This document shows positions 3,763-23,232 of a stretch of DNA of 24,559 nucleotides, piece after piece. Made by a program: the position numbers and the translations under genes. The stretch lies in UHGV virus genome UHGV-0135335, one strand, 5' to 3'. Within the stretch, counting starts at the first letter, position 1. Every line of letters begins with the position of its first letter. Below the pieces are notes generated by a model, which was not told the origin of the DNA, ran no database searches, and saw nothing but the letters and a program-made list of their open reading frames with translations. The stretch is from a virus.

Positions 3763-3790
3763 AAGCCCGCAGCCGTGGGCTTTTCTTTTG
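3763..3790 (+). terminator. Weak hairpin plus T-tract between portal and protease (possible attenuator)
   Basis: AAGCCC-gcagccgt-GGGCTT followed by TTTTCTTTT. Short stem, so low confidence. Confidence 0.3.
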
Positions 3791-4711: not shown

Positions 4712-4736
4712 CCCGACGCCTACGCGTCACCCTGAA

Positions 4737-4760
4737 AGCAGCCATATGGCTGCTTTTTTT
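4737..4760 (+). terminator. Rho-independent terminator-like hairpin between protease and capsid genes
   Basis: Perfect palindrome AGCAGCCAT|ATGGCTGCT followed by TTTTTTT. Confidence 0.55.
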
Positions 4761-6087: not shown

Positions 6088-6116
6088 AAAGGCCCGCTTT
6101 GCGGGCCTTTTTTATT
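6088..6116 (+). terminator. Rho-independent terminator after major capsid gene
   Basis: GGCCCGC-ttt-GCGGGCC stem followed by TTTTTTATT. Confidence 0.8.
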
Positions 6117-6137: not shown

Positions 6138-6485
6138 ATGGCTGGAAAATCTAAAAAAGATGCCGGTGCAGACACCACAACTTCCGTTGATGGTGGTGAT
6201 GCGATTATTGATACCGCCAATATTGTCGACGGTGTGATTTCTGCTGATGCGATCACCGGTGATGAAATTGGGACCGTGGTCCCAGCGGTTAAATCCGCGC
6301 CGGAACGTCGCGCTGTTGTGTTCCTGGGGCCATATCATCGCTATTCGCGCGCTGATGTCGCTGCATTCGATGCTGAATACGCTGAAGAGCTGGTTACGCG
6401 CAAAATTGCAGCCTGGCCAGAAGATGCGAAGCGTGCGTTGAATCCTCGTTGGGGAGACGATGACCATGAAACCGACATTGGATGA
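6138..6485 (+). CDS. Hypothetical acidic protein (Asp/Gly/Ala-rich N-terminus)
   Basis: ATG 6138 with GGAG at 6127-6130. 115 aa. Contains palindrome copy 2 within its coding sequence (EIGTVVPAV). Confidence 0.5.
   Translation: MAGKSKKDAGADTTTSVDGGDAIIDTANIVDGVISADAITGDEIGTVVPAVKSAPERRAVVFLGPYHRYSRADVAAFDAEYAEELVTRKIAAWPEDAKRALNPRWGDDDHETDIG
6269..6284. other. Putative SopB-binding centromere-like palindrome, copy 2 (TGGGACCGTGGTCCCA)
   Basis: 16-bp inverted repeat inside the 6138-6485 ORF. Confidence 0.7.
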
Positions 6486-6789: not shown

Positions 6790-7130
6790 GCCAGAAACCA
6801 CTGCAACCCGGAGAGCTGAATTGCCGGTTGTCGTTCAGCTACATCGTTATCGGCGAAGGACCGCTGGGTGAGCCGCTGCCGGCGCAGGAGGTGCAAGCGG
6901 GGAAAGCCTGGGCGAAGAAAGAGCTGATTTCAGGCCGGAAAATCCGGACGCTGGACCAGCAGCAGGTGGTCGAAACCTGTGAATTTACCCTCTATCCGCG
7001 TGAAGTGGATATCGACTGGAAGGTGGCCACAAAGGACCGGGTTTATACCGTTCGCAATGTTGACCGACTTCCGGACCGCATGATCATTACGGGGGAGGCT
7101 GACGGGCGCCATGATCGAGCTGGCAATTAA
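6786..7130 (+). CDS. Head closure / head-tail adaptor protein
   Basis: ATGA overlap with the connector stop. 114 aa with C-terminal DRVYTVRNVD...MIITGEA, typical of head-tail joining (SPP1 gp16-like) proteins. Confidence 0.7.
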   Translation: MSQKPLQPGELNCRLSFSYIVIGEGPLGEPLPAQEVQAGKAWAKKELISGRKIRTLDQQQVVETCEFTLYPREVDIDWKVATKDRVYTVRNVDRLPDRMIITGEADGRHDRAGN

Positions 7131-7491
7131 ACCTGCGCTGGAGCGCATAACGGGCCTGAAAGCGTACCCGCTGCTGCTGCCTGATAGCGTGCAGGAAGGG
7201 GCAACCTTTCAGCGTATTTCCGACCCGCAGGTCGGTGATGGCCTGGTGCGTACCGGGCTAATTGACGTCCGGATGCAGGTCAATCTTTATCTGATTGATG
7301 ATTACACCCGCGCGTTGCAGCTGGATAGAGCATTGTGGGCCGAGTGGAAAACCCTGGTACATGGAGAGCTTGAGGGCCATCCGGTCCAGTACGTCGAGCG
7401 AGGCGGCATCCAGCAGGATAAAGTCACCCTGACCAGTGGCCGCGTGCAGTACCGCCTTGTCCGCGATTTCACTTTTACCGTTCCGGAGTAA
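7111..7491 (+). CDS. Neck / tail-completion protein (hypothetical, gp9-like position)
   Basis: 126-aa ORF in the expected position between head closure and tail terminator genes. Assignment is by synteny only. Confidence 0.5.
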   Translation: MIELAIKPALERITGLKAYPLLLPDSVQEGATFQRISDPQVGDGLVRTGLIDVRMQVNLYLIDDYTRALQLDRALWAEWKTLVHGELEGHPVQYVERGGIQQDKVTLTSGRVQYRLVRDFTFTVPE

Positions 7492-7496
7492 CTCCC

Positions 7497-7907
7497 ATGG
7501 AGATGGAAATCAAATTCCCGACCGGGAAGGATTTCGATCGGATTCTGGAAGATATCGACAAAAAAGTAGGTGTGAAGTTGCTACGTGATGCCGGACGTGA
7601 GGCGATGAAAATCGTTCAGCTGGACATGATTAGCAACGCCGGTTTCGATGAGGAAAGTACCGGGCCGCACATGCGCGATAGCATCAAAATTCGTAGTACC
7701 AACGTAGCAGAAACCTCCCGCTATAACACGATCGTCACGCTTCGTGTCGGTCCCAGCAAAACCCATCACATGAAAGCCCTGGCTCAAGAGTTTGGCACCG
7801 TTAAGCAGGTTGCCAAACCGTTTATTCGCCCGGCGCTGGATTACAACGTTCAGAAAGTCCTGCAGGTGCTGGCAACTGAAATCCGCATCGGGCTGGAAGG
7901 TCAATAA
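7497..7907 (+). CDS. Tail-component protein, HK97 gp10 family
   Basis: 136 aa containing STGPHMRDSIK, resembling the TG-x-L/M-R-x-SI signature of HK97 gp10-like proteins. Sits immediately upstream of the major tail gene. Confidence 0.6.
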   Translation: MEMEIKFPTGKDFDRILEDIDKKVGVKLLRDAGREAMKIVQLDMISNAGFDEESTGPHMRDSIKIRSTNVAETSRYNTIVTLRVGPSKTHHMKALAQEFGTVKQVAKPFIRPALDYNVQKVLQVLATEIRIGLEGQ

Positions 7908-7920
7908 TCGGAGATAAAAA

Positions 7921-8397
7921 ATGGCAGACGATATCAAATCCCCCTCGGAGTATGCATCCCTTCCGGCGGGTACCCGCGTTTATTACGGCGCCGTTGGCGC
8001 TACGATCGCTACCGCAAAACTGTTGCAGTCGGCAACCGCCATCGGGGCCACCGGCAACAAAGGGACGTTTATCGAAGTTACCCGCCTGATCGACACTGAG
8101 CCGAAGTACATGGCTGATATGGGCGAAGGTGAAGACAAAACGCTGGTCTTTATCGATGACCCGGATGATGTTGCACAGCAGGCGCTGCTGGCTTCTGCTG
8201 ACGCGAAAGAAACGGTTGTCTTTTTCATGCAGTTCCCGAACCGTCGCCTGGCAGAGATTCAGCTCGTTCTGGCCGGCTGGAGCATGCAGACCGTCGATTC
8301 ACCGAAAGGAAAGGTGCTACAGCTGGAGGTTTACGGCAAGCAGAACAAACTGAAATGGACGGTGACCCCCGCCGAACCGGACCAGGGCGGCGCGTAA
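7921..8397 (+). CDS. Major tail (tube) protein
   Basis: 158-aa ORF located between the neck proteins and the G/GT chaperone genes. Assignment is by synteny and size. Confidence 0.6.
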   Translation: MADDIKSPSEYASLPAGTRVYYGAVGATIATAKLLQSATAIGATGNKGTFIEVTRLIDTEPKYMADMGEGEDKTLVFIDDPDDVAQQALLASADAKETVVFFMQFPNRRLAEIQLVLAGWSMQTVDSPKGKVLQLEVYGKQNKLKWTVTPAEPDQGGA

Positions 8398-8448
8398 TCC
8401 TTTGGCCATTGCCAGCCACTTCCTTCATTTATCATCAGGATCATCATC

Positions 8449-8793
8449 ATGAACTACAAATCGCTGACCACCCCGCTGAACACCACCACTGAAAAAACGC
8501 TGCTTGGCCAGAAGGTGTTTATCCGCCGCCTGACTAATACCGAGCTGGATAATTACAACGATACGGTTGATGCAGCACGCAAAGAAGGCCAATCGTCGCG
8601 CCAGCTGTCCATTCTGGGTGCCAGTTTGTTCCTGCAGGCGTTGGTTAACGAAGATGGCTCTCGCCCTGGGAAAAAGGACCTTCCGACGGCGGAAGAACTG
8701 CTCGACGCGCATGCTTCAGCTGATTTGCTGCAGGCGATTACCACCGTCCAGCGCTATTCCTATGGCACGCCAGAGGAAGCGGAAAAAAACTAA
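8449..8793 (+). CDS. Tail assembly chaperone (lambda gpG-like)
   Basis: 114-aa acidic product immediately upstream of the tape measure gene. Ends with slippery A AAA AAC followed by TAA. Confidence 0.7.
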   Translation: MNYKSLTTPLNTTTEKTLLGQKVFIRRLTNTELDNYNDTVDAARKEGQSSRQLSILGASLFLQALVNEDGSRPGKKDLPTAEELLDAHASADLLQAITTVQRYSYGTPEEAEKN

Positions 8794-9032
8794 CCACCTC
8801 GCCCCGGCTCAGACTGCTGTTCATGCTGGCAGACCGCTGGGGCGAGCCTGACCCGCGCAAACTTGGTGACCTGCCGGCGCACATTCTCACCTATTGGGAG
8901 GCATATTTTAACCTCCTGAAGACTGAGACCGCCGGCGAGCCACCGCCATCATCACCGCAGCCTGCTGTTGCACCGTCTGAGGGCGCTCAGCAGTTCGCTG
9001 ATTGTCTGAGGATCTTAGGAAATGGCGGCTGA
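8449..9032 (+). CDS. Tail assembly chaperone frameshift product (gpGT-like); -1 slip at A AAA AAC (8784-8790)
   Basis: The -1 frame is open from the slippery heptamer through to 9032 (KKLTTSPRLRLLFMLADRWG...). Its end overlaps the tape-measure start. This is the conserved arrangement in lambda-like tails. Confidence 0.6.
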
Positions 9033-12000
9033 TGTTGCATCGTTGGCCGTTGCGCTTCACCTGAATTCGGCCAGTTTCAAATCGCAGTTTGCTGATGCGA
9101 TGCGGTCGGCTGATAGTGGGGCGCAACAGTTCAACAGAAAGGCGCAGGCGGATGCCAAAAATACCCGCCAGTCATACGAGGGAGTCAGCAAGGGGATCAC
9201 CGGTCTCGATGCTGACTTTAATAAACTTGGCCGCACGGTTGATAAGCGTCTGACCGGGCTTGATGAGATGCGCGGCCTGCTGGCCAGCATCTCTGCCGGT
9301 AGCAACGTTGCCGGCAGTTCGATAGCAAACGCGCTGGTTACGTCGCTCAGCGAAGGTATGAGCACCGCGCTATCAAACAGCGTGAATGGCCTGAAGAACC
9401 AGCGGCAGGCCCAGATTGAGTTCACCGCGGCGCAGGTTGATGCGGCGCGTGGCGTCATTGAGAACGCCAGGAGCCTTCGCGAAGAGGCCATCGCCAAACA
9501 GAATGCTGCAGTGAAGACGATCGAGGCGGCTAAAGCGGACCGCGAGCGCGCGTTCGCGCTCGATGAGTATTACGCCAAGCAGGCCCAGGTGAACAAGCAG
9601 TACGGCATAACCGTTGATTATCAGGAAGAGCACGTTAAAAACTCCCGCGTGATTAACGAAGCGAACCTGGCGGAAGCCAAGGGCAAAAATAGTCTGGCCG
9701 AAGCGACCAAAGCGGTGCTGGCGGCTGATATTGCCGAATCTGACGGTAAGCTGCAGTTGGCCACATCGACCCGAAATCTGGCAGTTGTGAGCCAGGAACT
9801 ATCGCTCGGCCAACGAGCTGCTGCGGCCAGCGCCGGGTTATTGCGTGGCGCACTGGCGATGGTCGGCGGTCCGGTCGGTCTTGCCGTGATGGCGGTTGCC
9901 GGCGCGGGTACCGCGATTTATACCGCGTTCTCGCGCAGCCAGGCGGAGATCGACGGATTCAACAAGGCGCTGCAGAAGTCCGGGCAGCAGTCCGTGATGA
10001 ACGTGATGTACCTGCAGAACCTGGTTTCCCGCCTGGGCGACACCGCCGGTGCGGTTAAGTCGGTCACTGCCGCCGTCGGCGCCGGGTTCGGCGGCGATAT
10101 TCTGGATCAGGTGGCGGGGCTTGGCACCCGTATGGAAGAAATTGGCCAGAGTTCTGATGACCTGGTTACGCTGCTTTCCAGTCTCAGCGGCGACCCGCTG
10201 AATGCGCTGCAAAAGCTGACCGATCAGGGAATTTTGCTGAACAGCAGCATGGTCGATCAGATTGTTACCCTGAGCCGCCAGGGGAAAACGACTGAGGCTA
10301 CCGCGCTGCTGCAGCAGGCGGCCATGGATGACGTTTCCGAAAAGCTCAAAATTCAGGAAAGCCAGGTGGGTGTGCTGGAAGGCGCATGGAAGTCCCTGAA
10401 AGGGTTTGTGGCTGATGCCTTTAAGACCAGGGGCGATGCGCATATGGCTACCGCCCAGGCAATGGCCGCCGGCGCCAATGTCGATCTGACGCCAACCGAA
10501 GACCCCGCCATCAAACAGCGTGAAGAGGCTGAAAAACTCTACCAGCAGCGGAAGAAAGAGCGCGAAGAGCTGACGAAGCGCCTGAAGGATGAAAACACCC
10601 TCTCCGGCCTGATGAAAGCGGGCGTCTCGCGTGAGAAAGAGCGCGCTGATGCCATTGCGCTGGTCAACGCGAACTATACGAAAGGGACGGCTGAGTACAC
10701 GCAGGCGATGGCTGGCGTGAACAAGATGTACTCCGAGCAGAAGAAAGCCCGTGAGAAAGCGTATTCCGATGATACCGCGACACGCCGTCTGCAGGACTTG
10801 CGGCAGGAAGAAGCGGTGCTGCGCACGCAGAACGACCAGACCGAGCAGCTGACGAACAGCGAGCGCAAGCTGCTGCAGTTCAATCAGGAAGTCGCCGATC
10901 TGAAAGAAAAGCGCATCCTGACCGCTGGCCAGCGCAGTCTGCTGGCGCAGGAAACGGAGCTTCGCAACCAGCTGCAGATCAACGCCAGCCTGGACCGCGC
11001 CAACGCGCAGCGGAAAATAGGCCTGCAGATGCAGGAGAAGAACCAGGAACTGTACCGCTCAACAATCCAGTTGCAGCAGGAGTACAGCAACCGTGTAGCG
11101 CAGATGACGATGAGTTCAACCGCGTATGATCAGATGGTTGCCGAACAGCAGATTCGCGAGCGATTTGCAAAACTGAGGGAAGAGCTTGATAAAACCGTAA
11201 GTGATCACGCTTCTGAACAGTATCGCCAGCAAACGGAAGTGTTACGCAGCGAAGAGCAGAAGCAGTTCGATATTGTTTTGAGCGGAGCTAAGCGAAAAAG
11301 AGAAGTGGAAGGATCTTGGCTCGATGGCATGAAGAAAGGGCTTCAGGATTGGCGTGAAGATGCTGAAAACCAGTTTGCTATGACGCGAGATATTGCAGTT
11401 AATGCTATGGACGGCATGAGCAATAGCATCTGGAATTTTGCCTCTAAAGGGAAGGCTGATTTTAAGTCATTTGCGGTTTCAGTCATCAATGATATCGGAC
11501 AGATGATCACCAAAATGCTGGTCATGAATGCGGTTAAATCAGGCGCATCTGCATTTGGCATAAGTAGCATGTTCGGCTGGGCTGATGGTGGTTATACCGG
11601 TGATGGCGGCAAGCATGACGTTGCTGGCGTGGTCCATAAAGGCGAATGGGTTATTCCTCAGAACGTCGTGCAAAAACCCGGCATGCTGAATTTCCTGAAC
11701 CAGCTGACCTATGGCAGCGGCTATGCAGACGGCGGTTTAGTTGGTGGTAGCGTTGCCCGCCCTTCCAGCAATGAAGATGCCGGCAGTGATAATCGAAACA
11801 TCCGCTTTACGGTCAACATCCCGCTGCAGGTGATTAAGCAGAGCGCCGCGGCAAACCAGCAATCAAAAGACCAGGGAAAAACCAGCGATGAGGCTCTTAG
11901 CCTCGAGGCGTTATCCCAGATAAAACAGGTCTGCTACAGCGTGCTTGACCGTGAGTTATCGAATAACGGCATGATCCTGAATGCAATCAAGGGGGCGTGA
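9022..12000 (+). CDS. Tail tape measure protein (lambda gpH-like)
   Basis: 992-aa ORF that is largely Ala/Gln/Glu-rich and coiled-coil-like, with a Gly-rich C-terminal region. Position is after G/GT. Confidence 0.9.
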   Translation: MAADVASLAVALHLNSASFKSQFADAMRSADSGAQQFNRKAQADAKNTRQSYEGVSKGITGLDADFNKLGRTVDKRLTGLDEMRGLLASISAGSNVAGSSIANALVTSLSEGMSTALSNSVNGLKNQRQAQIEFTAAQVDAARGVIENARSLREEAIAKQNAAVKTIEAAKADRERAFALDEYYAKQAQVNKQYGITVDYQEEHVKNSRVINEANLAEAKGKNSLAEATKAVLAADIAESDGKLQLATSTRNLAVVSQELSLGQRAAAASAGLLRGALAMVGGPVGLAVMAVAGAGTAIYTAFSRSQAEIDGFNKALQKSGQQSVMNVMYLQNLVSRLGDTAGAVKSVTAAVGAGFGGDILDQVAGLGTRMEEIGQSSDDLVTLLSSLSGDPLNALQKLTDQGILLNSSMVDQIVTLSRQGKTTEATALLQQAAMDDVSEKLKIQESQVGVLEGAWKSLKGFVADAFKTRGDAHMATAQAMAAGANVDLTPTEDPAIKQREEAEKLYQQRKKEREELTKRLKDENTLSGLMKAGVSREKERADAIALVNANYTKGTAEYTQAMAGVNKMYSEQKKAREKAYSDDTATRRLQDLRQEEAVLRTQNDQTEQLTNSERKLLQFNQEVADLKEKRILTAGQRSLLAQETELRNQLQINASLDRANAQRKIGLQMQEKNQELYRSTIQLQQEYSNRVAQMTMSSTAYDQMVAEQQIRERFAKLREELDKTVSDHASEQYRQQTEVLRSEEQKQFDIVLSGAKRKREVEGSWLDGMKKGLQDWREDAENQFAMTRDIAVNAMDGMSNSIWNFASKGKADFKSFAVSVINDIGQMITKMLVMNAVKSGASAFGISSMFGWADGGYTGDGGKHDVAGVVHKGEWVIPQNVVQKPGMLNFLNQLTYGSGYADGGLVGGSVARPSSNEDAGSDNRNIRFTVNIPLQVIKQSAAANQQSKDQGKTSDEALSLEALSQIKQVCYSVLDRELSNNGMILNAIKGA

Positions 12001-12002
12001 TA

Positions 12003-12350
12003 ATGGCGCTGGAAACATTTAACTGGTCGCCGAGGAATGGTCCTGTCGGGGACATTCAATTTCGTACCCGGTCAGCGCAATATGGCGATGGTTACGAGCA
12101 GGTGACTGGCGACGGCATAAACTCCGAAACACAGTCATGGCCATTGACGTTTGTCGGGCTGAATGAAGATATCAGGCCCATCCTGAAGTTCGTCAGAGAG
12201 CATGGCGAAACGCGCGCGTTTAAGTGGGTAAACCCACTGGGTGAGCTTGGGTTATATCGCGCCACCCAGATCAAACCCACTGTGATGGATTTTGCTCGTA
12301 TGTCGCTATCTGTTACGTTTGTGACGGCATTTCGCGCCGAATCATCATAG
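12003..12350 (+). CDS. Minor tail protein M (lambda gpM-like)
   Basis: ATG 12003 after GGGGG. Product motif YGDGYEQ and overall length match lambda gpM (FGDGYSQ) as recalled. Confidence 0.8.
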   Translation: MALETFNWSPRNGPVGDIQFRTRSAQYGDGYEQVTGDGINSETQSWPLTFVGLNEDIRPILKFVREHGETRAFKWVNPLGELGLYRATQIKPTVMDFARMSLSVTFVTAFRAESS

Positions 12351-12358
12351 AGGGATAT

Positions 12359-12736
12359 ATGAAAGGACTTTTTTCCGCACTTGTTATGTGTGTTGCATTA
12401 ACTGGTTGTGTCCAACCTATGACAAAAGCTGAAGTTGATCGTGCAGTTTATGAACCGTTGCCTGCAGATTACCAAGAGCAAATAAAGTCAACGATTGAGC
12501 TTAGACTGAAAGATCCTGACTCTGCAAAATATCGGTTTTTCGACCCCAAAAAAGGATATACAGAGGGTACACGGCACTTTGGATTTGTAGTTCCCGTAGG
12601 TGTTAATGCAAAAAATAGCTATGGCGGATATACGGGTTATAAATTGTATTATTTCGTTTATTACAACCAATCATTCAAAGATGTCACCGAAGGCGTAGCA
12701 TGGGATGCAGTCAAATGGTCTGATGACGTCAAATAG
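12359..12736 (+). CDS. Lipoprotein moron (hypothetical secreted lipoprotein)
   Basis: SD GAGGG then ATG 12359. Signal peptide with lipobox LTGC (MKGLFSALVMCVALTGC). Visibly AT-richer than flanking tail genes. Followed by its own terminator. Confidence 0.6.
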   Translation: MKGLFSALVMCVALTGCVQPMTKAEVDRAVYEPLPADYQEQIKSTIELRLKDPDSAKYRFFDPKKGYTEGTRHFGFVVPVGVNAKNSYGGYTGYKLYYFVYYNQSFKDVTEGVAWDAVKWSDDVK

Positions 12737-12762
12737 CCTCATCCCCCCACACCCCCACAAAC

Positions 12763-12784
12763 CCCGCTCTGCGGGGTTTTTTGT
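12763..12784 (+). terminator. Rho-independent terminator after lipoprotein moron
   Basis: CCCCGC-tct-GCGGGG stem followed by TTTTTTG. Confidence 0.8.
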
Positions 12785-12786
12785 TA

Positions 12787-12804
12787 TTGGGACCATGGTC
12801 CCAA
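12787..12804. other. Putative SopB-binding centromere-like palindrome, copy 3 (TTGGGACCATGGTCCCAA, perfect 18-bp palindrome)
   Basis: Intergenic, lying between the moron terminator and the gpL Shine-Dalgarno sequence. Confidence 0.7.
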
Positions 12805-12817
12805 TCAGGAGAAACCC

Positions 12818-13567
12818 ATGGGTATCGCAGCTGATGATCAGAAATTAGAACCCGGCAGCAAAATCGAGCTGTACGAGGTGGACGGCACCGCGTTCGGGGC
12901 CGAGGTGCTCTACTTCCACAACCATGCTATCCCGTACACCGCAGAAGAGATCCTCGCCGCCGGCGATGATGCCAGCCTGCTGCCTGGTAAACCTATCTTC
13001 TGGCAGGGCATACGCTACGATGCGTGGCCGTGCCGGATTGAGGACATGGAATCTAATGGCGACGGCTCGCCGGCTACACCGAAATTATCGGTGGCCAACC
13101 TGGACGGCTCGATCTCTTCGCTGTGCGGTATGTTCCAGGACATGAAGCAGGCCAAAGTCACGGTTCACCGTACTTACGCACATTATCTCGATGCGGAGAA
13201 CTTCCCCGACGGTAACCCCAGCGCCGACCCGACCGCTGACAGCGTGGAAGTCTGGTACATCGACAGTAAAGCAGCGGAGAACGACACGACCGTCCAGTTC
13301 AAGCTGGCCTCTCCGGTTGATGTAACCGGGCAGAAGCTACCCGCGCGCCAGATGCTAAGCCGCTGCGCCTGGTGCCTGCAGGGCCAATATCGTGGTCCTG
13401 ACTGCGGCTATACCGGAACGAACTACTTCGACAAATTCGGCAACCGGGTCGACAACCCGGCGCAGGATGAATGCCCCGGTACCGTCGCCGGCTGTAAGCT
13501 GCGCTGGGGCGAAAATTCAGAGCTGCCGTTTGGCGGTTATCCGGCCATTGCGCTGATAAGGATGTGA
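12818..13567 (+). CDS. Minor tail protein L (lambda gpL-like)
   Basis: C-terminal Cys cluster CAWCLQGQYRGPDCGY...CPGTVAGCKLR aligns with the lambda gpL Cys motif (CTWTYRGDECGY...CSKCLSGCKFR) as recalled. Confidence 0.85.
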   Translation: MGIAADDQKLEPGSKIELYEVDGTAFGAEVLYFHNHAIPYTAEEILAAGDDASLLPGKPIFWQGIRYDAWPCRIEDMESNGDGSPATPKLSVANLDGSISSLCGMFQDMKQAKVTVHRTYAHYLDAENFPDGNPSADPTADSVEVWYIDSKAAENDTTVQFKLASPVDVTGQKLPARQMLSRCAWCLQGQYRGPDCGYTGTNYFDKFGNRVDNPAQDECPGTVAGCKLRWGENSELPFGGYPAIALIRM

Positions 13568-14278
13568 ATGATGCTGAGCCAGCGATTGATTACCGCCATC
13601 CAGAAACACGCCGCGGAAGTGTACCCGCAGGAGTGCTGCGGGTTGATTATCCGCGCGACGCGGCAGCGCCGCTATATTCCCTGTGAAAACACCCACGATC
13701 AGCCCGCCGATTGTTTCCGGATCAGTGCTGAAGCCTGGGCGGATGCTGAGGACGCTGGCGAAGTGCTGGCGGTGGTGCATTCACATCCGGATGCAGGTCC
13801 GCATGCGTCTGCAGAAGACCTGAAGCAATGCCATGAAAGCGGCCTGCCGTGGGTCATCATGTCGTGGCCATCCGGAGAGCATACCGTTACCACGCCAGCC
13901 GATACACCGCCGCTGCTGAAGCGTCCTTTTATTCATGGCAGCTGGGACTGCTACGGGCTTATCCGTGACTGGTATAAGCAGGAGCGCGGTATCGATCTGC
14001 CCGACTTTGAGCGGACCGATAACTGGTGGACACGCGGCGAGAATCTCTACGTTCGGCACTATGCCGAGGCGGGGTTTTACTCGCACGCCAGCGAGCTGCA
14101 GCCGGGCGATATCATCCTGATGCAGTACAAGGCCGATGAAATTAACCATGCCGGCATTTACCTGGGGGACGGAAAGATGTTCCACCACATGTATGGCCGG
14201 CTGAGTGAAGTTGTTCCGTACGGCGGCATGTGGCGCGACCGTACGCTGTTAACGCTGAGGTATAGAGATGGGCAGTGA
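13568..14278 (+). CDS. Tail assembly protein K (lambda gpK-like; JAMM/MPN plus NlpC/P60 domains)
   Basis: JAMM motif HSHPDAGPHASAED (HxH-x7-S-xx-D). Downstream Cys (SWDCYG) and His (INHAGIY) are consistent with an NlpC/P60 fold. Confidence 0.85.
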   Translation: MMLSQRLITAIQKHAAEVYPQECCGLIIRATRQRRYIPCENTHDQPADCFRISAEAWADAEDAGEVLAVVHSHPDAGPHASAEDLKQCHESGLPWVIMSWPSGEHTVTTPADTPPLLKRPFIHGSWDCYGLIRDWYKQERGIDLPDFERTDNWWTRGENLYVRHYAEAGFYSHASELQPGDIILMQYKADEINHAGIYLGDGKMFHHMYGRLSEVVPYGGMWRDRTLLTLRYRDGQ

Positions 14279-14879
14279 ATCCCTTAATACCGTTGAGAAA
14301 GTCGTCCTGGTGCGCCTGTACGGCAAGCTGGGAATGTTATTTGGGCGCGAGCACCGGTTGTCCGTCTCATCCGTACGTGAAGCGATACGCGCGCTCTGCA
14401 TCATGATCCCCGGTTTCGAACTTTGGCTGGAAACAAGCCAGGATCGGGGGATCACGTACGCCATCTTTAACGGCGAACGCAATATCCGCGAGCAGGACCT
14501 GCAGCTGGATGGCGTACACGAAGTTATCCGCATTGCGCCGGTGATTATCGGCAGCAAGAAGAGCGGGATGTTCCAGACGGTTTTTGGTGCAGTACTTGTT
14601 GCCGTTGGGTTCGTTCTTAGCTTTACGCCGGCTATCGCCGCCTCGCCGTTTCTCTACAAAATGGGTGCCGCGATGATGCTGGGCGGCATAGCGCAGATGC
14701 TTGTTCCCGCCGGTACGCAGGGGATGACGACAGAAACGAAAGATACCCGCAAAAGCTACTCATTCGGTGCGCCGACGAACCAGGTGGCCGCGGGGAGTGG
14801 TGTTCCGATTCTTTACGGCATCCGTGAAATCGGCGGCGTACTGATTAGCGGCGGCATTTACGCCGAGGACCAGAACTAA
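14268..14879 (+). CDS. Tail assembly protein I (lambda gpI-like)
   Basis: 203-aa ORF overlapping the K stop. Hydrophobic C-terminal half with Gly-rich segments, in the expected K-I-J order. Confidence 0.75.
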   Translation: MGSESLNTVEKVVLVRLYGKLGMLFGREHRLSVSSVREAIRALCIMIPGFELWLETSQDRGITYAIFNGERNIREQDLQLDGVHEVIRIAPVIIGSKKSGMFQTVFGAVLVAVGFVLSFTPAIAASPFLYKMGAAMMLGGIAQMLVPAGTQGMTTETKDTRKSYSFGAPTNQVAAGSGVPILYGIREIGGVLISGGIYAEDQN

Positions 14880-14896
14880 AAGACCTTTATCCAATT

Positions 14897-14921
14897 ATCC
14901 CGCTTCGGCGGGATTTTTTTT
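14897..14921 (+). terminator. Terminator-like hairpin between I and J
   Basis: ATCCCGC-ttcg-GCGGGAT stem followed by TTTTTTTT. Confidence 0.6.
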
Positions 14922-14935
14922 GCCCGGAGTTAGCA

Positions 14936-17900
14936 ATGGAAATTACAGGCGCAAAAGGTGGCGGCGGCAGCGGAAGTAGCGATAAAGGCGAGAACCGCGG
15001 TACCGAGATCGCTTCAGTTGCTTACATGAAGATATTACTGGCGCTGACCGAGGGGGAAGCCGCCGGCGGATTCTCAGGCCAGGATATTTATCTCGATGGT
15101 ACGCCGCTGCTGGATGATTCCGGGAATGCAAACTTCCCAGGCGTTACCTGGGAATGGCGTAGCGGGACTGTCGACCAGCCATATATTTCCGGCTTTCCTG
15201 CTGTAGAAAATGAAGTGGCCGTTTCTACGGAGCTGAAGTACGGGACGCCGTGGGTTAAGTCGATTAACAACACGCAGCTCTCAGCCGTTCGTCTGCGCCT
15301 GAAATTCCCGAATGGCCTGTATGAACTGCGAGACTCAGGTGGGAAGAGTGGTTATACCGTTGAGTTTGCCATTGATATCTCAACTGATGGCAGTTCCTAT
15401 GTCGAATACGGGCGGGATACCGCAAGCGGTATTGCTAATAACGGCTATGAGCGTAGCTATCGAATTGAGCTGCCACCGGCGCAGACTGGCTGGCAAATTC
15501 GCGTAAGACGCCTTACACCAAACGCCAATGATGCCCGGCACGCCGATACATCCCGGATCGAATCGATAACCGATATCGTTGATGCCAAATTGCGGTATCC
15601 CCATACCTCGCTGCTGTTCGTCCAGTTCGATTCTCAGTTGTTCGATGGTCGTACGCCGACAGTAACGATAAAAATGAAGGGGATCATCGTTCGCGTTCCA
15701 TCGAACTATGACCCGATCAACCGGACGTATAGCGGTACGTGGGACGGGACGTTTAAATGGGCATGGACGAACAACCCGGCCTGGATTTTTTACGACATCG
15801 TGACGAATGCCCGGTACGGCCTTGGTCGCCGCATAACGACAAACCTCGTTGATAAATGGACGCTCTACCAGATTGCTCAGTACTGCGATGCGAAGGTTTC
15901 TGACGGCGCAGGAGGCACAGAAGCGCGTCATCTTTGTGACCTGTACATTTCACAGAGAACCGACGCCTGGACGGTCCTGATGGATTTGGCGGCGATTTTC
16001 AGGGGGATGATCAGCTGGTCGAATAATCTGCTTTCGCTTGATGCCGATATGCCGCGCGAGCTGGACCCGGACTTTGTCTTCAACAAGTCCAATATTGTCG
16101 GTTCGTTCAACTTCTCCAGCTCATCCGAGCGTACCAACTATTCTGCGGCGATAGTGACTTACAGCAACCCGAACAACGGCTACAACGATGATCAGGCCAG
16201 CGTTCACGTACCTGAAGTCTCTTCGCGATTTGGTTTCAATACGATGGAAATGACTGCCGTCGGCTGCACGCGCGAGAGTGAGGCGCAGCGCCGCGGGTTG
16301 TGGGGTATCGAGACGAACCGCGATGATAATGCGGTTGAGTTCAAAACAGGCATGGAAGGCCGTATTCCGAGGGTTGGCAAAGTGATCGGCGTGAATAACG
16401 CACCACTGGCCGGACGGGCGAACGGTGGCCGTGTAGCTGCAGCTGCAGGTACAAAAATCACGCTGGACAGAAATACCGTTGCCGTTCCCGGTAATCGCCT
16501 GATCATCAACCTGCCGACGGGAAAGGCCGAAGGACGAACGATTAAGTCAGTATCTGGCCGCGCGGTCACTGTGGAATCTGCATACAGCGTATTACCTAAC
16601 GCTGAGTCGGCGTGGGTAATTGACCAGCAGGATCTGGCCATCCAGTTATTCAGGGTTCGCCGTGTGGCCATCGGGAGTGATGACCTGGTAACAATATCCG
16701 GGTTGCCCTATAACCCGAACAAATTCGCGAAAATTGATGATGGCGCGATTGTCGAAGACCGTCCTGTGACCGTGGTCCCACCTGGTAGCCAGTCTGTACC
16801 AACGAACATTGAAATCACCAGTGAATACCGAATTGTTCAGGGGATAGGTATAAACACCCTGGTCGCGACATGGGACCCGGTGATAAACGCCATCGCCTAC
16901 GAGGTGCAATGGCGCCAGAATAGCGGCGACTGGATTAATGCAGGCAGGACAGGAAATACCCGAATTGAGGTCGACGGTATTTATGCTGGCCGTTATGTCG
17001 TCCGCGTTCGGGCCATCAACGCGATGGATGTTGCCTCGGTATGGGCAGTATCAAAGGAAGTCCAGCTGGATGGAAAAATCGGAAAGCCGCCCGTTCCTGT
17101 CAATTTGAGAACAACCCCGATGCTATGGGGTATTCGTATTGACTGGTCTATTCCCGCAGGAGCTGAGGACTCGCTCTATACGGAGCTGCAGTATGCGCAG
17201 GAACGCGACGGCAATACGGCGCTATTGCTGAGCAATATTCCATATCCGCAGTCCACATATTCACAGATGGGCCTTCGTGCAGGGCAGGAGTTCTGGTATC
17301 GGGCGCGTCTTATCGACAAGATAGGAAACCCATCGGACTGGACTGGATGGGAGCGCGGTATTTCAAACGATAACTCAGGTGATTATCTGGAGGGGATCGG
17401 TGATGGTTTCCTGACCTCAAAAGACGGTGACGCGTTGACGAGTCAGATTGACCAGAATATCGAGGGGATTCTACAAAATGCGCAGGCGAATAATGCCACC
17501 ATCGATCACCAGTGGAAGCAATATGGAGAGGTTCGCGCTGATATCCTGATTGTCAAAACGACAATTGCCGATGTTGATAAAGCGATGGCCGAGCTATCGA
17601 CGACAGTTCAGGCCCAGGTTGATGATATTACGGCCACGCTGGAAGATAAACTGACAGCGGTTGTCGATGCTGATGGCGCCTCAGCAATTCATACGCTGAA
17701 AGTCGGCGTAAGAATTGGCGACCAATATTATGGTGCGGGGATGTCCGTTGCTGTTATTGCGGATGCTGGTCAGCCAGTAATAACCAGAATTGGATTTAAC
17801 GCAAATCAGTTTGTGCTGATGAGTGGTCTGGACGATAAGCAATATTCACCGTTTGCAGTGATTAACGGTCAGGTATTTATCAGTAGCGCATTTATTCAGG

Positions 17901-18148
17901 ATGGCACAATTACCAATGCCAAAATTGGTAATTACATTCGAGGCAATGATTTTGTAAGTGGTGTTAATGGCTGGAATATTCCCAAGGATGGCACCCCTGA
18001 ATTTAATGGTGGCATTTTCCGTGGTGCTCTTTATGCATCATCCGGCGCATTCAGCTTTAACGGTGTGAATAATACTGTTGTGTTGAATGGTAATGGTGTG
18101 ACTGTAAACCTTCCAAACGGTGGCCGGATCGTTCTCGGCACATGGTAA
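14936..18148 (+). CDS. Host specificity protein J (central tail fibre / tip protein)
   Basis: 1070-aa ORF. The N-terminal 350 aa align by eye with lambda gpJ (for example VRVPSNYDP..RTYSGTWDGTFK versus lambda QVPSNYNPQTRQYSGIWDGTFK). The C-terminal region is divergent. Confidence 0.9.
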   Translation: MEITGAKGGGGSGSSDKGENRGTEIASVAYMKILLALTEGEAAGGFSGQDIYLDGTPLLDDSGNANFPGVTWEWRSGTVDQPYISGFPAVENEVAVSTELKYGTPWVKSINNTQLSAVRLRLKFPNGLYELRDSGGKSGYTVEFAIDISTDGSSYVEYGRDTASGIANNGYERSYRIELPPAQTGWQIRVRRLTPNANDARHADTSRIESITDIVDAKLRYPHTSLLFVQFDSQLFDGRTPTVTIKMKGIIVRVPSNYDPINRTYSGTWDGTFKWAWTNNPAWIFYDIVTNARYGLGRRITTNLVDKWTLYQIAQYCDAKVSDGAGGTEARHLCDLYISQRTDAWTVLMDLAAIFRGMISWSNNLLSLDADMPRELDPDFVFNKSNIVGSFNFSSSSERTNYSAAIVTYSNPNNGYNDDQASVHVPEVSSRFGFNTMEMTAVGCTRESEAQRRGLWGIETNRDDNAVEFKTGMEGRIPRVGKVIGVNNAPLAGRANGGRVAAAAGTKITLDRNTVAVPGNRLIINLPTGKAEGRTIKSVSGRAVTVESAYSVLPNAESAWVIDQQDLAIQLFRVRRVAIGSDDLVTISGLPYNPNKFAKIDDGAIVEDRPVTVVPPGSQSVPTNIEITSEYRIVQGIGINTLVATWDPVINAIAYEVQWRQNSGDWINAGRTGNTRIEVDGIYAGRYVVRVRAINAMDVASVWAVSKEVQLDGKIGKPPVPVNLRTTPMLWGIRIDWSIPAGAEDSLYTELQYAQERDGNTALLLSNIPYPQSTYSQMGLRAGQEFWYRARLIDKIGNPSDWTGWERGISNDNSGDYLEGIGDGFLTSKDGDALTSQIDQNIEGILQNAQANNATIDHQWKQYGEVRADILIVKTTIADVDKAMAELSTTVQAQVDDITATLEDKLTAVVDADGASAIHTLKVGVRIGDQYYGAGMSVAVIADAGQPVITRIGFNANQFVLMSGLDDKQYSPFAVINGQVFISSAFIQDGTITNAKIGNYIRGNDFVSGVNGWNIPKDGTPEFNGGIFRGALYASSGAFSFNGVNNTVVLNGNGVTVNLPNGGRIVLGTW
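16765..16780. other. Degenerate SopB-type palindrome (TGTGACCGTGGTCCCA, 15 of 16 match)
   Basis: One mismatch at position 3 relative to copy 2. Lies inside the J coding sequence. Confidence 0.35.
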
Positions 18149-18152
18149 TAAT

Positions 18153-19118
18153 ATGGCGAGTGGATTATTAATTGATTTAAATGATGGACGTCCTATGGCT
18201 ATTACCGCCGGACTCCGCGCCCCTGTATTCAGTACAGGGGTTGCGGGTGGGTATTATGGTGACGGAAACGAGGTTTCGTATATTGATACGCCTGGCTGGA
18301 ATGGAGGCTATGAATCGGTCTATATCCCCGTAGAAACCGTAGCCGCGTATGAAGTCGGAACGGACCTGTATCCCACGGTTGCCTATCTTACCAGCGTGAA
18401 TCAGGAATCAGGCCGCTTGCGTCTGACCTCCGGTTCAACCAGTGGGCGACCGCGCAGGCGAAATCTGTGGGCCGGTCAGGTCTGGTTTATCACGCCAGCC
18501 AGCCAGTCTGGTAACTCCGGGTTACTTATTCAGGATTCCACTGATTTCACCGTTATACCCACCAACGCCAACCTTGGAAGTTGTATATGGTATGGCGACG
18601 TTAATATAAACGGAGCCTGGAATATACCTGTTGATGGAATGGTATTCGCGTCCTGGGATAATCCCAGCGCGGTGTTATCACGGATGGGCAATACAATTTA
18701 TTGCACACTCGACCAGAATATTTATGAAGAAACCAGCGGGAATATTTGGGTACGCATTGCGATATTCGGGAATGCTGCCCCTTATGCCGGAACAGGGCTT
18801 AATTATTTCAACGCCGCAGGGCAATGCACTTTTTCAACTACCCGCAAACCTTTTGTGATTCAGGGCTTTTTCTACCCGTCGACTAACTGGCAGGGAATTG
18901 GCGGCATGGTCCCGCTCGGAACCTGTGGCTGGGCAGTACGGCCTGCCACCAACTCAACCAGCTGGAACATTGTCAGGATGAAAGGACTGATGATGTCAGG
19001 CGGCAACGTAAAGAGCGGTTTTGGCCGTATCGTCAGACGTGTTTCACGTCAGACCTTCGATATTCAGTCAGAGGGCGTATCGGGCGTAAAACTCCCCGTC
19101 ATCCCGAACTTTTATTAA
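18153..19118 (+). CDS. Hypothetical tail protein (Trp/Gly/Cys-containing; possible receptor-binding accessory)
   Basis: ORF between J and the tail fibre. The start is uncertain (GTG 18120 or ATG 18153) and neither has a strong SD. Confidence 0.5.
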   Translation: MASGLLIDLNDGRPMAITAGLRAPVFSTGVAGGYYGDGNEVSYIDTPGWNGGYESVYIPVETVAAYEVGTDLYPTVAYLTSVNQESGRLRLTSGSTSGRPRRRNLWAGQVWFITPASQSGNSGLLIQDSTDFTVIPTNANLGSCIWYGDVNINGAWNIPVDGMVFASWDNPSAVLSRMGNTIYCTLDQNIYEETSGNIWVRIAIFGNAAPYAGTGLNYFNAAGQCTFSTTRKPFVIQGFFYPSTNWQGIGGMVPLGTCGWAVRPATNSTSWNIVRMKGLMMSGGNVKSGFGRIVRRVSRQTFDIQSEGVSGVKLPVIPNFY

Positions 19119-19131
19119 TCAGGAGTAGGCA

Positions 19132-20454
19132 ATGTCTGCTGGAACTATTTCCATTCAAAATAATGCCGCGGCGGTGGCCGGCGATGGAACGGTATTTACC
19201 ACTGAATTATCCGCGGGTGATTTCATCGTTATTACCACAGGCGGGGTGACCTATACGCTGCCGGTGAAATCTATCGAGAGCGATACCGCACTGACTCTTG
19301 CCCAAAACTACAACGGCCCTGTGGTGACTGGCGCCGCATGGACGGCAATGCCGCGTGATACCCTGAACCGCATCAGTGCGCAGACTGCCGCAGATACATC
19401 GTATTTAGTTCGCCAGCGCGTTTTAGAGGTTGATAACTGGTATCAGCTGCTGGAAGTCAACGGCGATGTGACAATCAAAATGGCTGACGGTTCGAGCTAC
19501 ACTGGCCCCTCCTGGCTCAAGCTGATTGATGCCATGAACAACCCGACCTGGGCGCTGGCCAAAAGCAAAAACCTATCCGACCTGGAAGACCGCGATGAGG
19601 CATGGATGAATGTCCGCCCGACAGGCCCGACACCGCTGGCAGCGGCTCCTGTGGGTGAGGGGGACGCGGCGACAAAGGGATATGTTGATAATAAGAAAAT
19701 TGATATTGCGCACGGAGGAACCGGGGCGACGACAGAAGCGGGTGCCAGGGAAGCCTTAAAGCTATCATCAGCGGCAACAACTGAAATAGGGACCAGTGGT
19801 GCAAAACTTCCGCTTCTGAATGCAGCGAATACATGGGGCGCGACTCAAACTATAAAATCGCCAATAGTGGTCGCCGTCGATGGACCCGCCAGCCCGGCAT
19901 CAGGGCAGCTTATTAATAGTCCTGTGTTGAGAATGCGTGTTAACGGACGCGGTGCTAATGGCGATGCCCTTGGTGAAATTGGCGATATATTCATCCAGGA
20001 AAAAGTAGGTACATATGTCGCTTTAACATTTAATGTTAGCGCTTTTTCTGATAATAAATTCTGGAGCATGAATGCCTCAACGGGGGAAACCTTCTCGCCC
20101 CTTGGTGCTCTGGCAGTTCAGGGTTCGGACGTTCGTATCAAATACAATTTCACACCGCCAAAATTAGGGGCGTGGAAACGCGTAGAGGCAATCGGCATCT
20201 GCGAATATATGTATAACGGCAGCGCCATTCCGCAGCGTGGTTTTCTGGCACAACAGATGGGTGAAGTTGATGAGATGTATGTGTTCGAATCATCTGTCTC
20301 TACCGCGAAAGACGCGGACGGTAACGAATTCAACATTCTGAATGTCAATGACCGTGCTGTGATGGCGGATATGATTATCGTCATTCAGGCACTACAGCAG
20401 AAAGTTACGGCCCTGGAAGCACTGGTGGAGAAAATATCTTCAGGTAATAGTTGA
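19132..20454 (+). CDS. Tail fibre protein with C-terminal peptidase S74 intramolecular chaperone domain
   Basis: SD AGGAG then ATG 19132. The C-terminal 110 aa carry the S74 signature GSDVRIKYN ... GFLAQQMGEVDEMYVFES ... IIVIQALQQKVTALEALVEKI. Predicted catalytic Ser codon at 20125-20127. Confidence 0.75.
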   Translation: MSAGTISIQNNAAAVAGDGTVFTTELSAGDFIVITTGGVTYTLPVKSIESDTALTLAQNYNGPVVTGAAWTAMPRDTLNRISAQTAADTSYLVRQRVLEVDNWYQLLEVNGDVTIKMADGSSYTGPSWLKLIDAMNNPTWALAKSKNLSDLEDRDEAWMNVRPTGPTPLAAAPVGEGDAATKGYVDNKKIDIAHGGTGATTEAGAREALKLSSAATTEIGTSGAKLPLLNAANTWGATQTIKSPIVVAVDGPASPASGQLINSPVLRMRVNGRGANGDALGEIGDIFIQEKVGTYVALTFNVSAFSDNKFWSMNASTGETFSPLGALAVQGSDVRIKYNFTPPKLGAWKRVEAIGICEYMYNGSAIPQRGFLAQQMGEVDEMYVFESSVSTAKDADGNEFNILNVNDRAVMADMIIVIQALQQKVTALEALVEKISSGNS

Positions 20455-20490: not shown

Positions 20491-21672
20491 TCAAAGTATG
20501 TAGCGCTTGTTTATTTCATCGGCAATTTTCTTAATCCGCTCATTTTCAGTAGCTTCATCCTTCAGCACGGTTCTGGCGAACGGGATCAGGGCCAAAATTT
20601 CGTTGGCGGGAATATCGTATTCCAAGCCTGTAGCCGCAGCACGGATGTAGTTGGTCACATCATTAATTTCTAAAAATGCCTCATCCACTGCTTCACCAAC
20701 CGATTTTTGCTGCTCGGCCTGGTGAGCTTCCAGCAGTTCCTCAATCTTCTGTACTAACGCTGGCGGTACGTTGCTCAGTTGGAAGGATACAGAATCCCCC
20801 TTGTACTTCGCTTTTATCCCTTTACCAAACAGGCGTTCACGCATTGCAGGTTTTACTGGTTTTTGCGCCACCTGGTGTAGCTGGTCAAGAATGTCATCGG
20901 TTTCGAGCTGTTCACCAGCACGCTTACGCTTGGCCAGATGCTGAGCAAACGCAAACATCGCCTCTTCATTCTCGGCATAGGCTTTTGCCAGTGCCTCACC
21001 AGCTCGGGCGCTCAGTTCGTTAGGGTTACGGAACAGGCTAATAATTTCGCGTGGTAGCTCTGCCGTCTTCATGCAGCGGACGATAATTTTTCGGGAGATA
21101 TTCTCAGCTTCGGCCAGCTTGCTGACTGTACCGCCGAACTCATTGGCCAGACGGCGAGCATAGCGCTTTCCGCGCTCGTAAGAGCTGGTCTGCCGGTAGT
21201 CGTTCCCGATCTGTGATAGCCAGGCCATTTGTTCGTCGTCCAGCTCGCCGACGAGAACGCGGTATTCAGAGCTGGTGTAAATGGCTGTCTGGCGGCGGCG
21301 GCTACCGTCGGCCACTTCAATAATGCCAGAGATTTTACGGCCAAATGCTGGGTTCTGTTGCCCGGACGCGAGGAATGACGGGATCAGATCATCCAGCGCA
21401 TCTTTTGTCAGCAGTGCCTGGTCTCGTTCATTTCCGCCCCAGACCATGGTCGCCTTTTCCACCATGTTCGCATCGACGGTTTCCAGTTTGAACGACACAT
21501 CCCGCCCACAGACCGGAAGCGTGATATGGTTCCCGGTCATCCCGCGGACGCGTTCACTGAGGTTAGCCACCGCCGGCGCAGCTGGTTTATGCGCGTCATC
21601 ATGGCGTGGGACCGCGGTCACAGTGTCCAGATTGATTTGTGGTGCGTTTTTCATTACTGGTGCGCGTTTCAT
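20491..21672 (-). CDS. sopB: Partition protein SopB (ParB family)
   Basis: From MKRAPV the product aligns closely with F-plasmid SopB as recalled (LPVCGRDV, GNERDQ, DALDDLIPSF, ADGSRRR, YRVLVGELDDEQM, AENISRKII). ATG overlaps the sopA stop (ATGA). About 70 aa longer at the C-terminus than F SopB. Confidence 0.85.
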   Translation of the reverse strand: MKRAPVMKNAPQINLDTVTAVPRHDDAHKPAAPAVANLSERVRGMTGNHITLPVCGRDVSFKLETVDANMVEKATMVWGGNERDQALLTKDALDDLIPSFLASGQQNPAFGRKISGIIEVADGSRRRQTAIYTSSEYRVLVGELDDEQMAWLSQIGNDYRQTSSYERGKRYARRLANEFGGTVSKLAEAENISRKIIVRCMKTAELPREIISLFRNPNELSARAGEALAKAYAENEEAMFAFAQHLAKRKRAGEQLETDDILDQLHQVAQKPVKPAMRERLFGKGIKAKYKGDSVSFQLSNVPPALVQKIEELLEAHQAEQQKSVGEAVDEAFLEINDVTNYIRAAATGLEYDIPANEILALIPFARTVLKDEATENERIKKIADEINKRYIL

Positions 21673-22838: not shown

Positions 22839-22856
22839 TTTCGTACTCTCCGGTAA

Positions 22857-22896
22857 CTTTGCGTAAAAACAGTAAAGCACCAAAAAAGACGCAAAG
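22857..22896. promoter_or_regulatory. Putative sopAB promoter/operator: CTTTGCGT ... ACGCAAAG inverted repeat
   Basis: 8-bp perfect inverted repeat with 24-bp spacing, 20-60 bp upstream of the sopA start. The CTTTGC hexamer is recalled as the SopA autoregulatory site in F. Confidence 0.45.
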
Positions 22897-22951
22897 CAAC
22901 ACAATTTATGCAAAATCCCTTAAAAAAAGATTTTCACAATGACAATCACAA

Positions 22952-22990: not shown

Positions 22991-23232
22991 CTTTGATTGA
23001 CAAAAATTGATTGATGTGTGACCATATGAAGGTTGCAACGAGCTTCAAACATGTATTTAGTCAGTAAGCAATCTATTCATTCATTAGTTAAAGTATTGAT
23101 TTATTAAGAAAACAATAGAGGAATATTAAATGATCAGAGGAACAATCAATCGCGGGGCGGGCAGATACCGATGAACAAGATAAGGAGGCAACCCACTTAA
23201 AAACCAATGTTTGATTTTTGGAGATTTTGATT

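Follow-up and report, generated by a model that had tools for sequence, protein, structure and literature searches.

A probable lipoprotein moron of the ES18 gp20 (PHROG 2320) family between tail genes M and L of an N15-like plasmid-prophage

Morons that encode envelope proteins are a main route by which prophages change the phage sensitivity and the surface properties of their hosts. Under the Juhala/Hendrix definition, as summarised in PMC3594210, a moron is extra DNA that is absent from close relatives, differs in base composition, carries a promoter and a terminator of its own, and is expressed while the prophage is repressed. The archetype is gene 15 of HK97, whose slot is flanked by the genes for the tail chaperone and the tape measure. 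The product of gene 15 is a small YebO-like envelope protein with bacterial homologues outside prophages; it is a proven superinfection-exclusion protein with a single pass through the inner membrane, not a lipoprotein, and both a promoter and lysogenic expression have been demonstrated. Small outer-membrane lipoproteins encoded among tail or receptor-binding genes are represented by Cor (N15 gene 24, phi80 and HK022) and by Llp of T5, which are about 77-78 aa long, inactivate FhuA, and form narrow, receptor-specific families; in N15, the cor gene follows J and is itself followed by a terminator. Another prophage moron, lambda Bor, is an outer-membrane lipoprotein with a role in serum resistance and many bacterial homologues, and its gene adjoins the lysis genes and has its own promoter. 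In a Gram-positive host, Ltp of Streptococcus phage TP-J34, a product of the lysogeny module, is described (PMC3952083) as a surface-anchored lipoprotein that stops the DNA injection mediated by the tape measure. Closest to the present case is gp20 of Salmonella phage ES18, for which the GenBank note reads "possible moron; function unknown".

The locus described here lies in a stretch of 24,559 nucleotides from the virus genome UHGV-0135335 (the window), in which a gene for a 125-residue lipoprotein stands between tail genes M and L. The window protein and ES18 gp20 are members of the same protein family (tblastn E=3e-8), with about 46% identity over about half of the protein. Both are uncharacterised, and both genes reside in a siphovirus tail operon and are followed by a terminator. 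They differ in placement: the ES18 gene lies before the tape-measure gene, after a terminator, and has an upstream spacer of its own, whereas the window gene lies between M and L and abuts M. The window gene can be regarded as an ordinary kind of phage moron, one that encodes an envelope lipoprotein of the ES18 gp20/PHROG 2320 family. The placement between M and L, proposed in a first-pass annotation made from the sequence, was confirmed by Pfam matches on either side (PF05939 and PF05100). The features of the locus are as follows.

12003..12350, plus strand: gpM-like minor tail gene, the left border of the slot (PF05939 Phage_min_tail, E=8.5e-28; phrog_14)
12350..12354, plus strand: Shine-Dalgarno sequence GAGGG of the lipoprotein gene, which overlaps the last base of the M stop codon and lies 4 nt before the ATG
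12359..12736, plus strand: lipoprotein ORF, 125 aa plus stop (PHROG 2320 family; dN/dS 0.08; AlphaFold2 mean pLDDT 88.6)
12359..12409, plus strand: predicted signal peptide with lipobox LTGC (Cys17 codon 12407-12409; Val at +2)
12506..12529, plus strand: conserved motif 1, LKDPDSAK, aa 50-57 (alignment of 41 sequences)
12605..12637, plus strand: conserved motif 2, NAKNSYGGYTG, aa 83-93 (modelled as a loop that connects two beta strands)
12737..12758, plus strand: C-rich, G-free 22-nt spacer, CCTCATCCCCCCACACCCCCAC, between stop codon and terminator
12759..12785, plus strand: rho-independent terminator, AAACCCCGC-TCT-GCGGGGTTT plus a T-run (9-bp stem with 6 G-C pairs, 3-nt loop)
12787..12804, no strand assigned: 18-nt perfect palindrome, TTGGGACCATGGTCCCAA, immediately 5' of gene L, where it marks the right end of the cargo slot
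12818..13567, plus strand: gpL-like minor tail gene, the right border of the slot (PF05100, E=2.3e-76)

By its gene content, the window is one arm of an N15-like plasmid-prophage. The gene order 3' of gpL is K (with JAB and NlpC/P60 domains), I and J. The J fragment in the window, which is C-terminal, is similar to N15 gp21 (68% over most of its length), and the values for J of N15 and HK225 are 68-71%. The last ~40 residues diverge from J of both phages; an inference about the receptor from J was dropped, as this divergence says nothing decisive on the point. There is no cor-like ORF after J in the window. Past the tail-fibre genes, the following genes are found, of which the leftward SopB and SopA genes are placed as in N15.

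20491-21723, minus strand: SopB-HTH/ParB
21669-22913, minus strand: ParA/SopA
23218-23553: TacA-like antitoxin, after SopA
23537-24091: GNAT acetyltransferase toxin, after the TacA-like antitoxin

The 47-kb Enterobacter asburiae plasmid pJBIWA007_2 is syntenic with the window gene for gene, and a lipoprotein 74% identical to that of the window is encoded there between M and L. After the lipoprotein and tail region this plasmid carries ParB, SopA and a protelomerase, the last of these standing after SopA at the place where the window has the TacA-like antitoxin and the GNAT toxin.

The N-terminus of the lipoprotein, MKGLFSALVMCVALTGC (from the translation of 12359..12736), has the make-up of a bacterial signal peptide, with Lys in a short basic n-region, a hydrophobic core, and the lipobox residues L14-T15-G16-C17. 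The pattern [LVI][ASTVI][GAS]C is satisfied by MKGLFSALVMCVA-LTGC, and the lipobox Cys is invariant in 41 of 41 aligned homologues; the lipobox noticed at first pass proved sound. Cleavage by signal peptidase II before Cys17, followed by lipidation, is predicted. In Enterobacterales, Asp at position +2 is the signal for Lol avoidance, and lipoproteins with any other residue there are sorted to the outer membrane. The +2 residue is never Asp among the 41 aligned homologues and is Val in the window protein; a script matched the lipobox in 36 of the 41 (with V, A, L, T, S, N or G at +2), and the remaining five show A or T after the Cys. The +2 residue thus agrees with outer-membrane sorting, and the protein is presumably located there.

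The alignment of 41 sequences also defines the two conserved motifs. In motif 1, L50 and D52 are invariant, while K51, P53, D54 and S55 are conserved in at least 90% of the sequences; in motif 2, the invariant residues are N83, N86, G89, G90, Y91 and G93. The dN/dS value listed above was obtained by comparing the window gene with its Citrobacter copy, and synonymous sites are saturated in comparisons with copies that are still 57-74% identical in protein sequence. Together, these results show that the gene is real and is under strong purifying selection.

The base composition of the lipoprotein gene sets it apart from its surroundings. The ORF has a GC content of 0.399 and a GC3 of 0.310, against 0.52-0.59 and 0.57-0.71, respectively, for the M, L, K, I and tape-measure genes, which bears out the early impression that it is AT-richer than its neighbours; only 1.7% of the 378-nt windows in the whole 24.6 kb are as AT-rich. 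Members of the family were likewise AT-richer than their flanks in 43 of 46 IMG/VR phage loci, with a mean difference of -7.6 points of GC.

Comparison of the junction between M and L in related phages provides a second line of evidence for acquisition. In N15, M and L overlap and there is nothing between them, and in Symbiopectobacterium prophages the two genes abut and the lipoprotein is absent. In an Enterobacter mori prophage (L016) whose L protein is 78% identical to that of the window, the junction is about 100 nt long and contains only a terminator, which is similar to that of the window. The same slot holds the lipoprotein gene in Citrobacter (98% identity), the lipoprotein gene plus about 1.9 kb of further DNA, including a Bro-N-like gene, in Enterobacteriaceae LSJC7, and the lipoprotein gene plus four reverse-strand ORFs in Pectobacterium aroidearum. 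Pectobacterium fontis has a different lipoprotein at this junction, and the fact that this protein (MKKIIPIVFLSFLLTAC..., encoded at 3505-3939 of L018) is unrelated to that of the window argues that the junction repeatedly collects lipoprotein cargo. Based on the varied content among relatives, the stretch from the M stop codon to the palindrome before L can be considered a cargo hot spot. The gene is thus extra DNA that is absent from close relatives (N15, E. mori and Symbiopectobacterium) and that differs in base composition, as expected of a moron. The claim of horizontal acquisition, made at first from the window sequence, is upheld by the foreign composition together with the pattern of presence and absence among closely related tail modules. 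Judging from these comparisons, the gene is very probably acquired accessory lipoprotein cargo, a "moron" in the loose sense of the term.

A minor observation concerns the empty E. mori junction. Here (L016, 3917-3990), an AT-rich segment of 40 nt is found with a terminator, AAACCCCGgattaCGGGGTTTTTT, that has the same stem as the terminator following the lipoprotein gene in the window. This empty junction may be a relic of a deleted cargo gene.

The terminator of the window gene starts 23 nt past the stop codon of the lipoprotein ORF, and gene and terminator have been kept together in the relatives with an occupied M-L slot despite the saturation of synonymous sites. Indeed, a terminator was found 3' of the family gene in 7 of 7 contexts inspected, at a distance of 5-33 nt. 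The first-pass annotation took the strong terminator as a hallmark of a moron. The terminator is certainly present, but at least five other strong intrinsic terminators are found at junctions of the same late operon (574-589, 3763-3782, 4734-4757, 6088-6110 and 14897-14914), where they stand after terS, the portal, protease and capsid genes and gene I, and one is also found at the empty E. mori M-L site. With terminators at so many junctions, that at 12759..12785 is no special hallmark. The N15 late operon is likewise annotated with terminators at many junctions, and the strong terminators in the window imply that its late genes, like those of N15 as annotated, can be transcribed only with antitermination.

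The start of the gene is arranged quite differently from that of a moron with its own promoter. Only 8 nt separate the M stop codon from the lipoprotein ATG, which leaves no room for an intergenic promoter. A consensus scan, of a kind that would not exclude a weak or activator-dependent promoter, found no sigma-70-like promoter scoring at least 9/12 upstream of the lipoprotein gene on the plus strand anywhere in 7087-20000. The best candidates upstream of the gene score 8/12 and lie 11-14 nt before the ATG, a position that would leave no leader. The proposal that the gene is expressed from the prophage is therefore without sequence support in this element, where the scan of the plus strand revealed no promoter belonging to the gene and the Shine-Dalgarno sequence overlaps the M stop codon. 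The simplest reading of the arrangement is that the lipoprotein gene is co-transcribed and translated with the antiterminated late operon, and the abutment of its ribosome-binding site on the M stop codon suggests that the protein is produced at least from the late transcript.

Upstream regions of a different kind are found in other contexts. In ES18, Yersinia, KPP5665-2 and Gilliamella, the family gene has a 60-110-nt spacer upstream with extended -10-like sites (identified as consensus matches), and in this set of contexts it sometimes lies directly 3' of another terminator. On the 3' side, the window spacer at 12737-12758 is rut-like in composition, but short; a similar C-rich tract is also found in the Citrobacter and IMG/VR relatives. 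A non-coding RNA in the region was considered and dropped, as Rfam gave only a sub-threshold chance match.

The family to which the window protein belongs is very large. A database search returned 65 homologues, the best being 98% identical and from Citrobacter freundii, and all of them bear the name "hypothetical protein" or "lipoprotein". Among 1.84 billion representative proteins, a profile search gave 11,357 clusters at E<=1e-3 and 3,340 at E<=1e-10, the clusters being defined at 50% identity. The family is represented on at least 420 IMG/VR contigs and 97 PLSDB plasmids and by more than 11,000 protein clusters. The profile search that had been recommended with the first-pass annotation yielded a single assignment, to phrog_2320 (E=1.6e-29), with both motifs present; the label of this PHROG, "unknown function", is the sole label of a family that lacks a characterised member. 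Neither the window protein nor at least 41 of its homologues matched Pfam, NCBIfam or PADLOC, and for the window protein these searches extended to E<=0.1 for Pfam and to E<=1 for the PADLOC-DB defence models (0 families). Megablast searches with the region as query returned nothing from phages, from plasmids or from E. coli genomes, and searches of the literature for the motifs, PHROG identifier and accessions gave no relevant result. A paper on Tai ("tail assembly inhibition") that mentions ES18, gp20 and morons deals with cytoplasmic proteins of no relation to the family, and the name gp20 there denotes the J protein of HK106/HK544.

Membership in the better-known families was also considered and rejected. 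The window protein has no match to Pfam YebO or to any other family that would place it with HK97 gp15. With Cor and Llp, hhalign aligns only 19-21 residues of the signal peptide, and there is no annotated PHROG match; with Bor, there is no PF06291 match and the hhalign alignment covers the signal peptide only. Ltp belongs to a different fold family and is linked to the window protein by no Pfam match. An Rz1-type o-spanin, a small proline-rich outer-membrane lipoprotein encoded within or beside an i-spanin gene of the lysis cassette, is ruled out by the tail-tip location between M and L, by the 108-aa globular mature domain, and by the lack of a Pfam match.

Structure prediction, also recommended at the outset, was successful in producing a confident model but not in connecting it to a named fold. 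In the AlphaFold2 model, which was built from the alignment, helix 38-47 packs on an antiparallel sheet of 5-6 strands to form a 108-aa globular mature domain, in which two long strands are joined by a loop made up of the glycine-rich motif. Foldseek found no match to this model in the PDB at E<0.1, and a search of BFVD returned unnamed phage proteins only. When the profile was compared to PDB sequences, the only match was to the lipoprotein signal peptide of TrwH (E=0.027). As modelled, the fold carries no functional information at present. Consistent with a location in the periplasm, some family members are tandem proteins or fusions with periplasmic PDZ domains.

The family gene is found at many different positions. 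A homologue lies before the tape-measure gene in ES18 (gp20) and in Klebsiella phage KPP5665-2, between the tape-measure gene and M in Edwardsiella tarda prophages, between K and I in Pseudomonas phage Medea1 and in two IMG/VR contigs (L095 and L101), and between a J-like gene and the tailspike gene in Yersinia aldovae. In Gilliamella, the homologue adjoins the tape-measure gene and is on the strand opposite to the tail genes. Among 46 non-redundant IMG/VR loci, the downstream neighbour is the tape-measure gene in at least 22, gpI in 4, gpL in 3 and a tailspike in 1, while the upstream neighbours include gpT (7 loci), gpK (5), gpM (3) and an accessory gene of antirepressor type (about 7). The family thus has a marked bias towards junctions around the tape-measure and tail-tip genes, and HK97 gene 15 occupies the very slot that the family fills most often in phages, the one between tail chaperone and tape measure. 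The gene is co-oriented with the late operon in most phage loci. Members also occur in a phage early region and beside an integrase gene. Chromosomal members sit among housekeeping genes, and the family gene is the near-sole cargo (one of two or three genes, or of 3-6 annotated genes) of plasmids of 2.4-5.6 kb from E. coli, Klebsiella, Enterobacter, Citrobacter and Aeromonas; these plasmids have no late operon. Seen across these loci, the family gene is a self-sufficient single-gene module that moves among tail-module junctions and beyond.

Two of these settings deserve description. The E. coli plasmid pCD58-3-3 (2389 bp; L120, 118-531) and L121 (206-619) encode 137-aa members with the lipobox LISAC and both motifs, followed by a terminator. 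In contigs L095 (5995-8313) and L101 (5986-8287), the K-I junction is occupied by a four-gene island. Besides the family lipoprotein, it encodes a 270-aa protein resembling colicin M (PF14859) and a further lipoprotein of another kind, and it includes one ORF on the reverse strand. The reverse-strand ORF presumably resembles the colicin M immunity protein Cmi. A role of the family lipoprotein in colicin M immunity was dropped, because what we take to be a separate Cmi-like gene is present in both loci.

The favoured model for the window protein can be described as a series of steps. The protein would be exported by the Sec pathway, cleaved by signal peptidase II before Cys17 and lipidated, as predicted from the lipobox, and Val at +2 suggests that Lol-dependent transfer would then carry it to the inner leaflet of the outer membrane. 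The globular domain of about 100 residues, with one helix on a 5-6-stranded sheet, would face the periplasm and present a conserved surface loop rich in Asp, Asn, Tyr and Gly. Expression would occur at least within the antiterminated late transcript. The most likely role would then be a one-gene, envelope-acting protection of the element and its host. As the leading candidate, the protein would exclude incoming phage in the periplasm, where it could act on penetration by the tail tip or the tape measure or on some conserved part of the envelope. It is less likely to be directed at a strain-specific receptor, and shielding of progeny from adsorption to debris is also possible. Taken as a whole, this explanation (acquired cargo with a protective role in the envelope, phage exclusion being favoured) has a chance of being correct that is not quite even.

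Phage exclusion in particular can be assigned tentatively, as a possible rather than a probable role. It is favoured by the position of family members beside tape-measure and tail-tip genes, by the precedents of HK97 gp15, Cor, Llp and Ltp, and by the fact that this N15-like element lacks cor. Given how extremely the family is conserved and how widely it is spread, the target would more probably be a conserved part of the envelope than any one receptor protein. The lack of any homology to Cor, Llp or Bor beyond the signal peptide counts against exclusion, as do the missing promoter in this element, the negative PADLOC search, and the size of the family with its many chromosomal members; Cor and Llp form narrow families whereas the window family is very large. 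Ltp offers a possible working analogy. The roles named in the first-pass annotation, namely superinfection exclusion, receptor masking and host-fitness modulation, are all hypotheses.

A more general proposal, distinctly unlikely as it stands, is that the LKDPDSAK/NAKNSYGGYTG lipoproteins (PHROG 2320) are a large, so far unrecognised class of entry-exclusion factors, each encoded by one gene and anchored in the outer membrane, that are carried by siphophages of Gram-negative hosts, by phage-plasmids and by small plasmids. Such proteins would interfere, from the periplasm, with a conserved step in the penetration of the tail tip or tape measure; they might bind peptidoglycan, for example, or inhibit a tail-associated hydrolase. 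The existence of such a class would explain the clustering of the gene beside tape-measure and tip genes.

The distribution of the family beyond phages leads to a different explanation. The enormous size of the family (11,357 clusters), its near-invariant LKDPDSAK and NAKNSYGGYTG motifs and its many non-phage chromosomal members suggest a housekeeping-type periplasmic activity that need not concern phages. The window protein could accordingly be compared to Bor in its logic: a widespread periplasmic lipoprotein that acts on a conserved component of the envelope, by binding or modification, and serves as a host-fitness or envelope-homeostasis factor, with no phage exclusion, the lysogen gaining, for example, tolerance to stress, serum, bacteriocins or antibiotics. 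The location of chromosomal members among housekeeping genes, the PDZ fusions, and carriage as cargo of tiny plasmids would all be expected. The strong bias of phage copies to tail-tip and tape-measure junctions would not, and the window element has neither a visible promoter for lysogenic expression nor a match to a known virulence or fitness family. This explanation is the main rival of phage exclusion and only somewhat less likely.

A role restricted to the lytic cycle would account well for the way in which the gene is coupled to M, with a start codon 8 nt past the M stop, an overlapping Shine-Dalgarno sequence and no upstream promoter, and also for its co-orientation with the late operon in most phage loci. 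The lipoprotein would then be made with the late genes only and would act during or after lysis, either by inactivating the receptor or the envelope and so sparing progeny from debris, or by modulating the disruption of the envelope. Protection from debris is the second role described for Llp of T5. However, copies in ES18 and Yersinia have 60-110-nt spacers of their own with extended -10-like sites and follow a terminator, which implies that the gene is transcribed independently elsewhere. The Gilliamella copy, moreover, is antisense to the tail genes, and the small plasmids that carry the gene have no late operon. A purely lytic role is improbable.

The gene does lie inside the tail-tip block, co-oriented and tightly coupled to M, but a structural tail protein or tail-assembly factor native to the phage lineage is scarcely credible, since the product bears a signal for export and a lipobox whereas tails are built in the cytoplasm, and since the gene is missing from close relatives whose tail genes otherwise stand in identical order, differs in position and strand among phages, has a foreign composition, and moves among junctions and occurs outside tail modules, on chromosomes and tiny plasmids. 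In keeping with the moron assignment of the first-pass annotation, no homologue looks like a virion component.

The window gene offers a clean and compact example of a family that is both very common and uncharacterised. If a member of the family were found to block phage entry, the short list of Gram-negative exclusion lipoproteins (Cor, Llp) would gain a large new family and thousands of "hypothetical" genes would gain an annotation; otherwise, the window protein would be one more accessory lipoprotein.

The palindrome that marks the right edge of the slot belongs to a repeated sequence, TTGGGACCryGGTCCCA, of which the window contains 3 copies (573-590, 6268-6285 and 12787-12804) where 0 are expected from shuffled sequences. 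In four relatives (L006, L042, L032 and L044), the palindrome stands 5' of L regardless of the cargo upstream, which argues that it is an element of the phage backbone. A site for protein binding and an RNA hairpin are both conceivable. The copy at 573-590 follows the terS stop codon and is accompanied by a T-run, so that it looks like a terminator before TerL, while the copy at 6268-6285 falls inside an ORF of 115 codons (6138-6485). This ORF lies directly 3' of the capsid terminator, has a GC3 of 0.41 that is unusually low for the late operon, and is among the genes called in relatives; a further accessory gene or a decoration gene is a possible identity.
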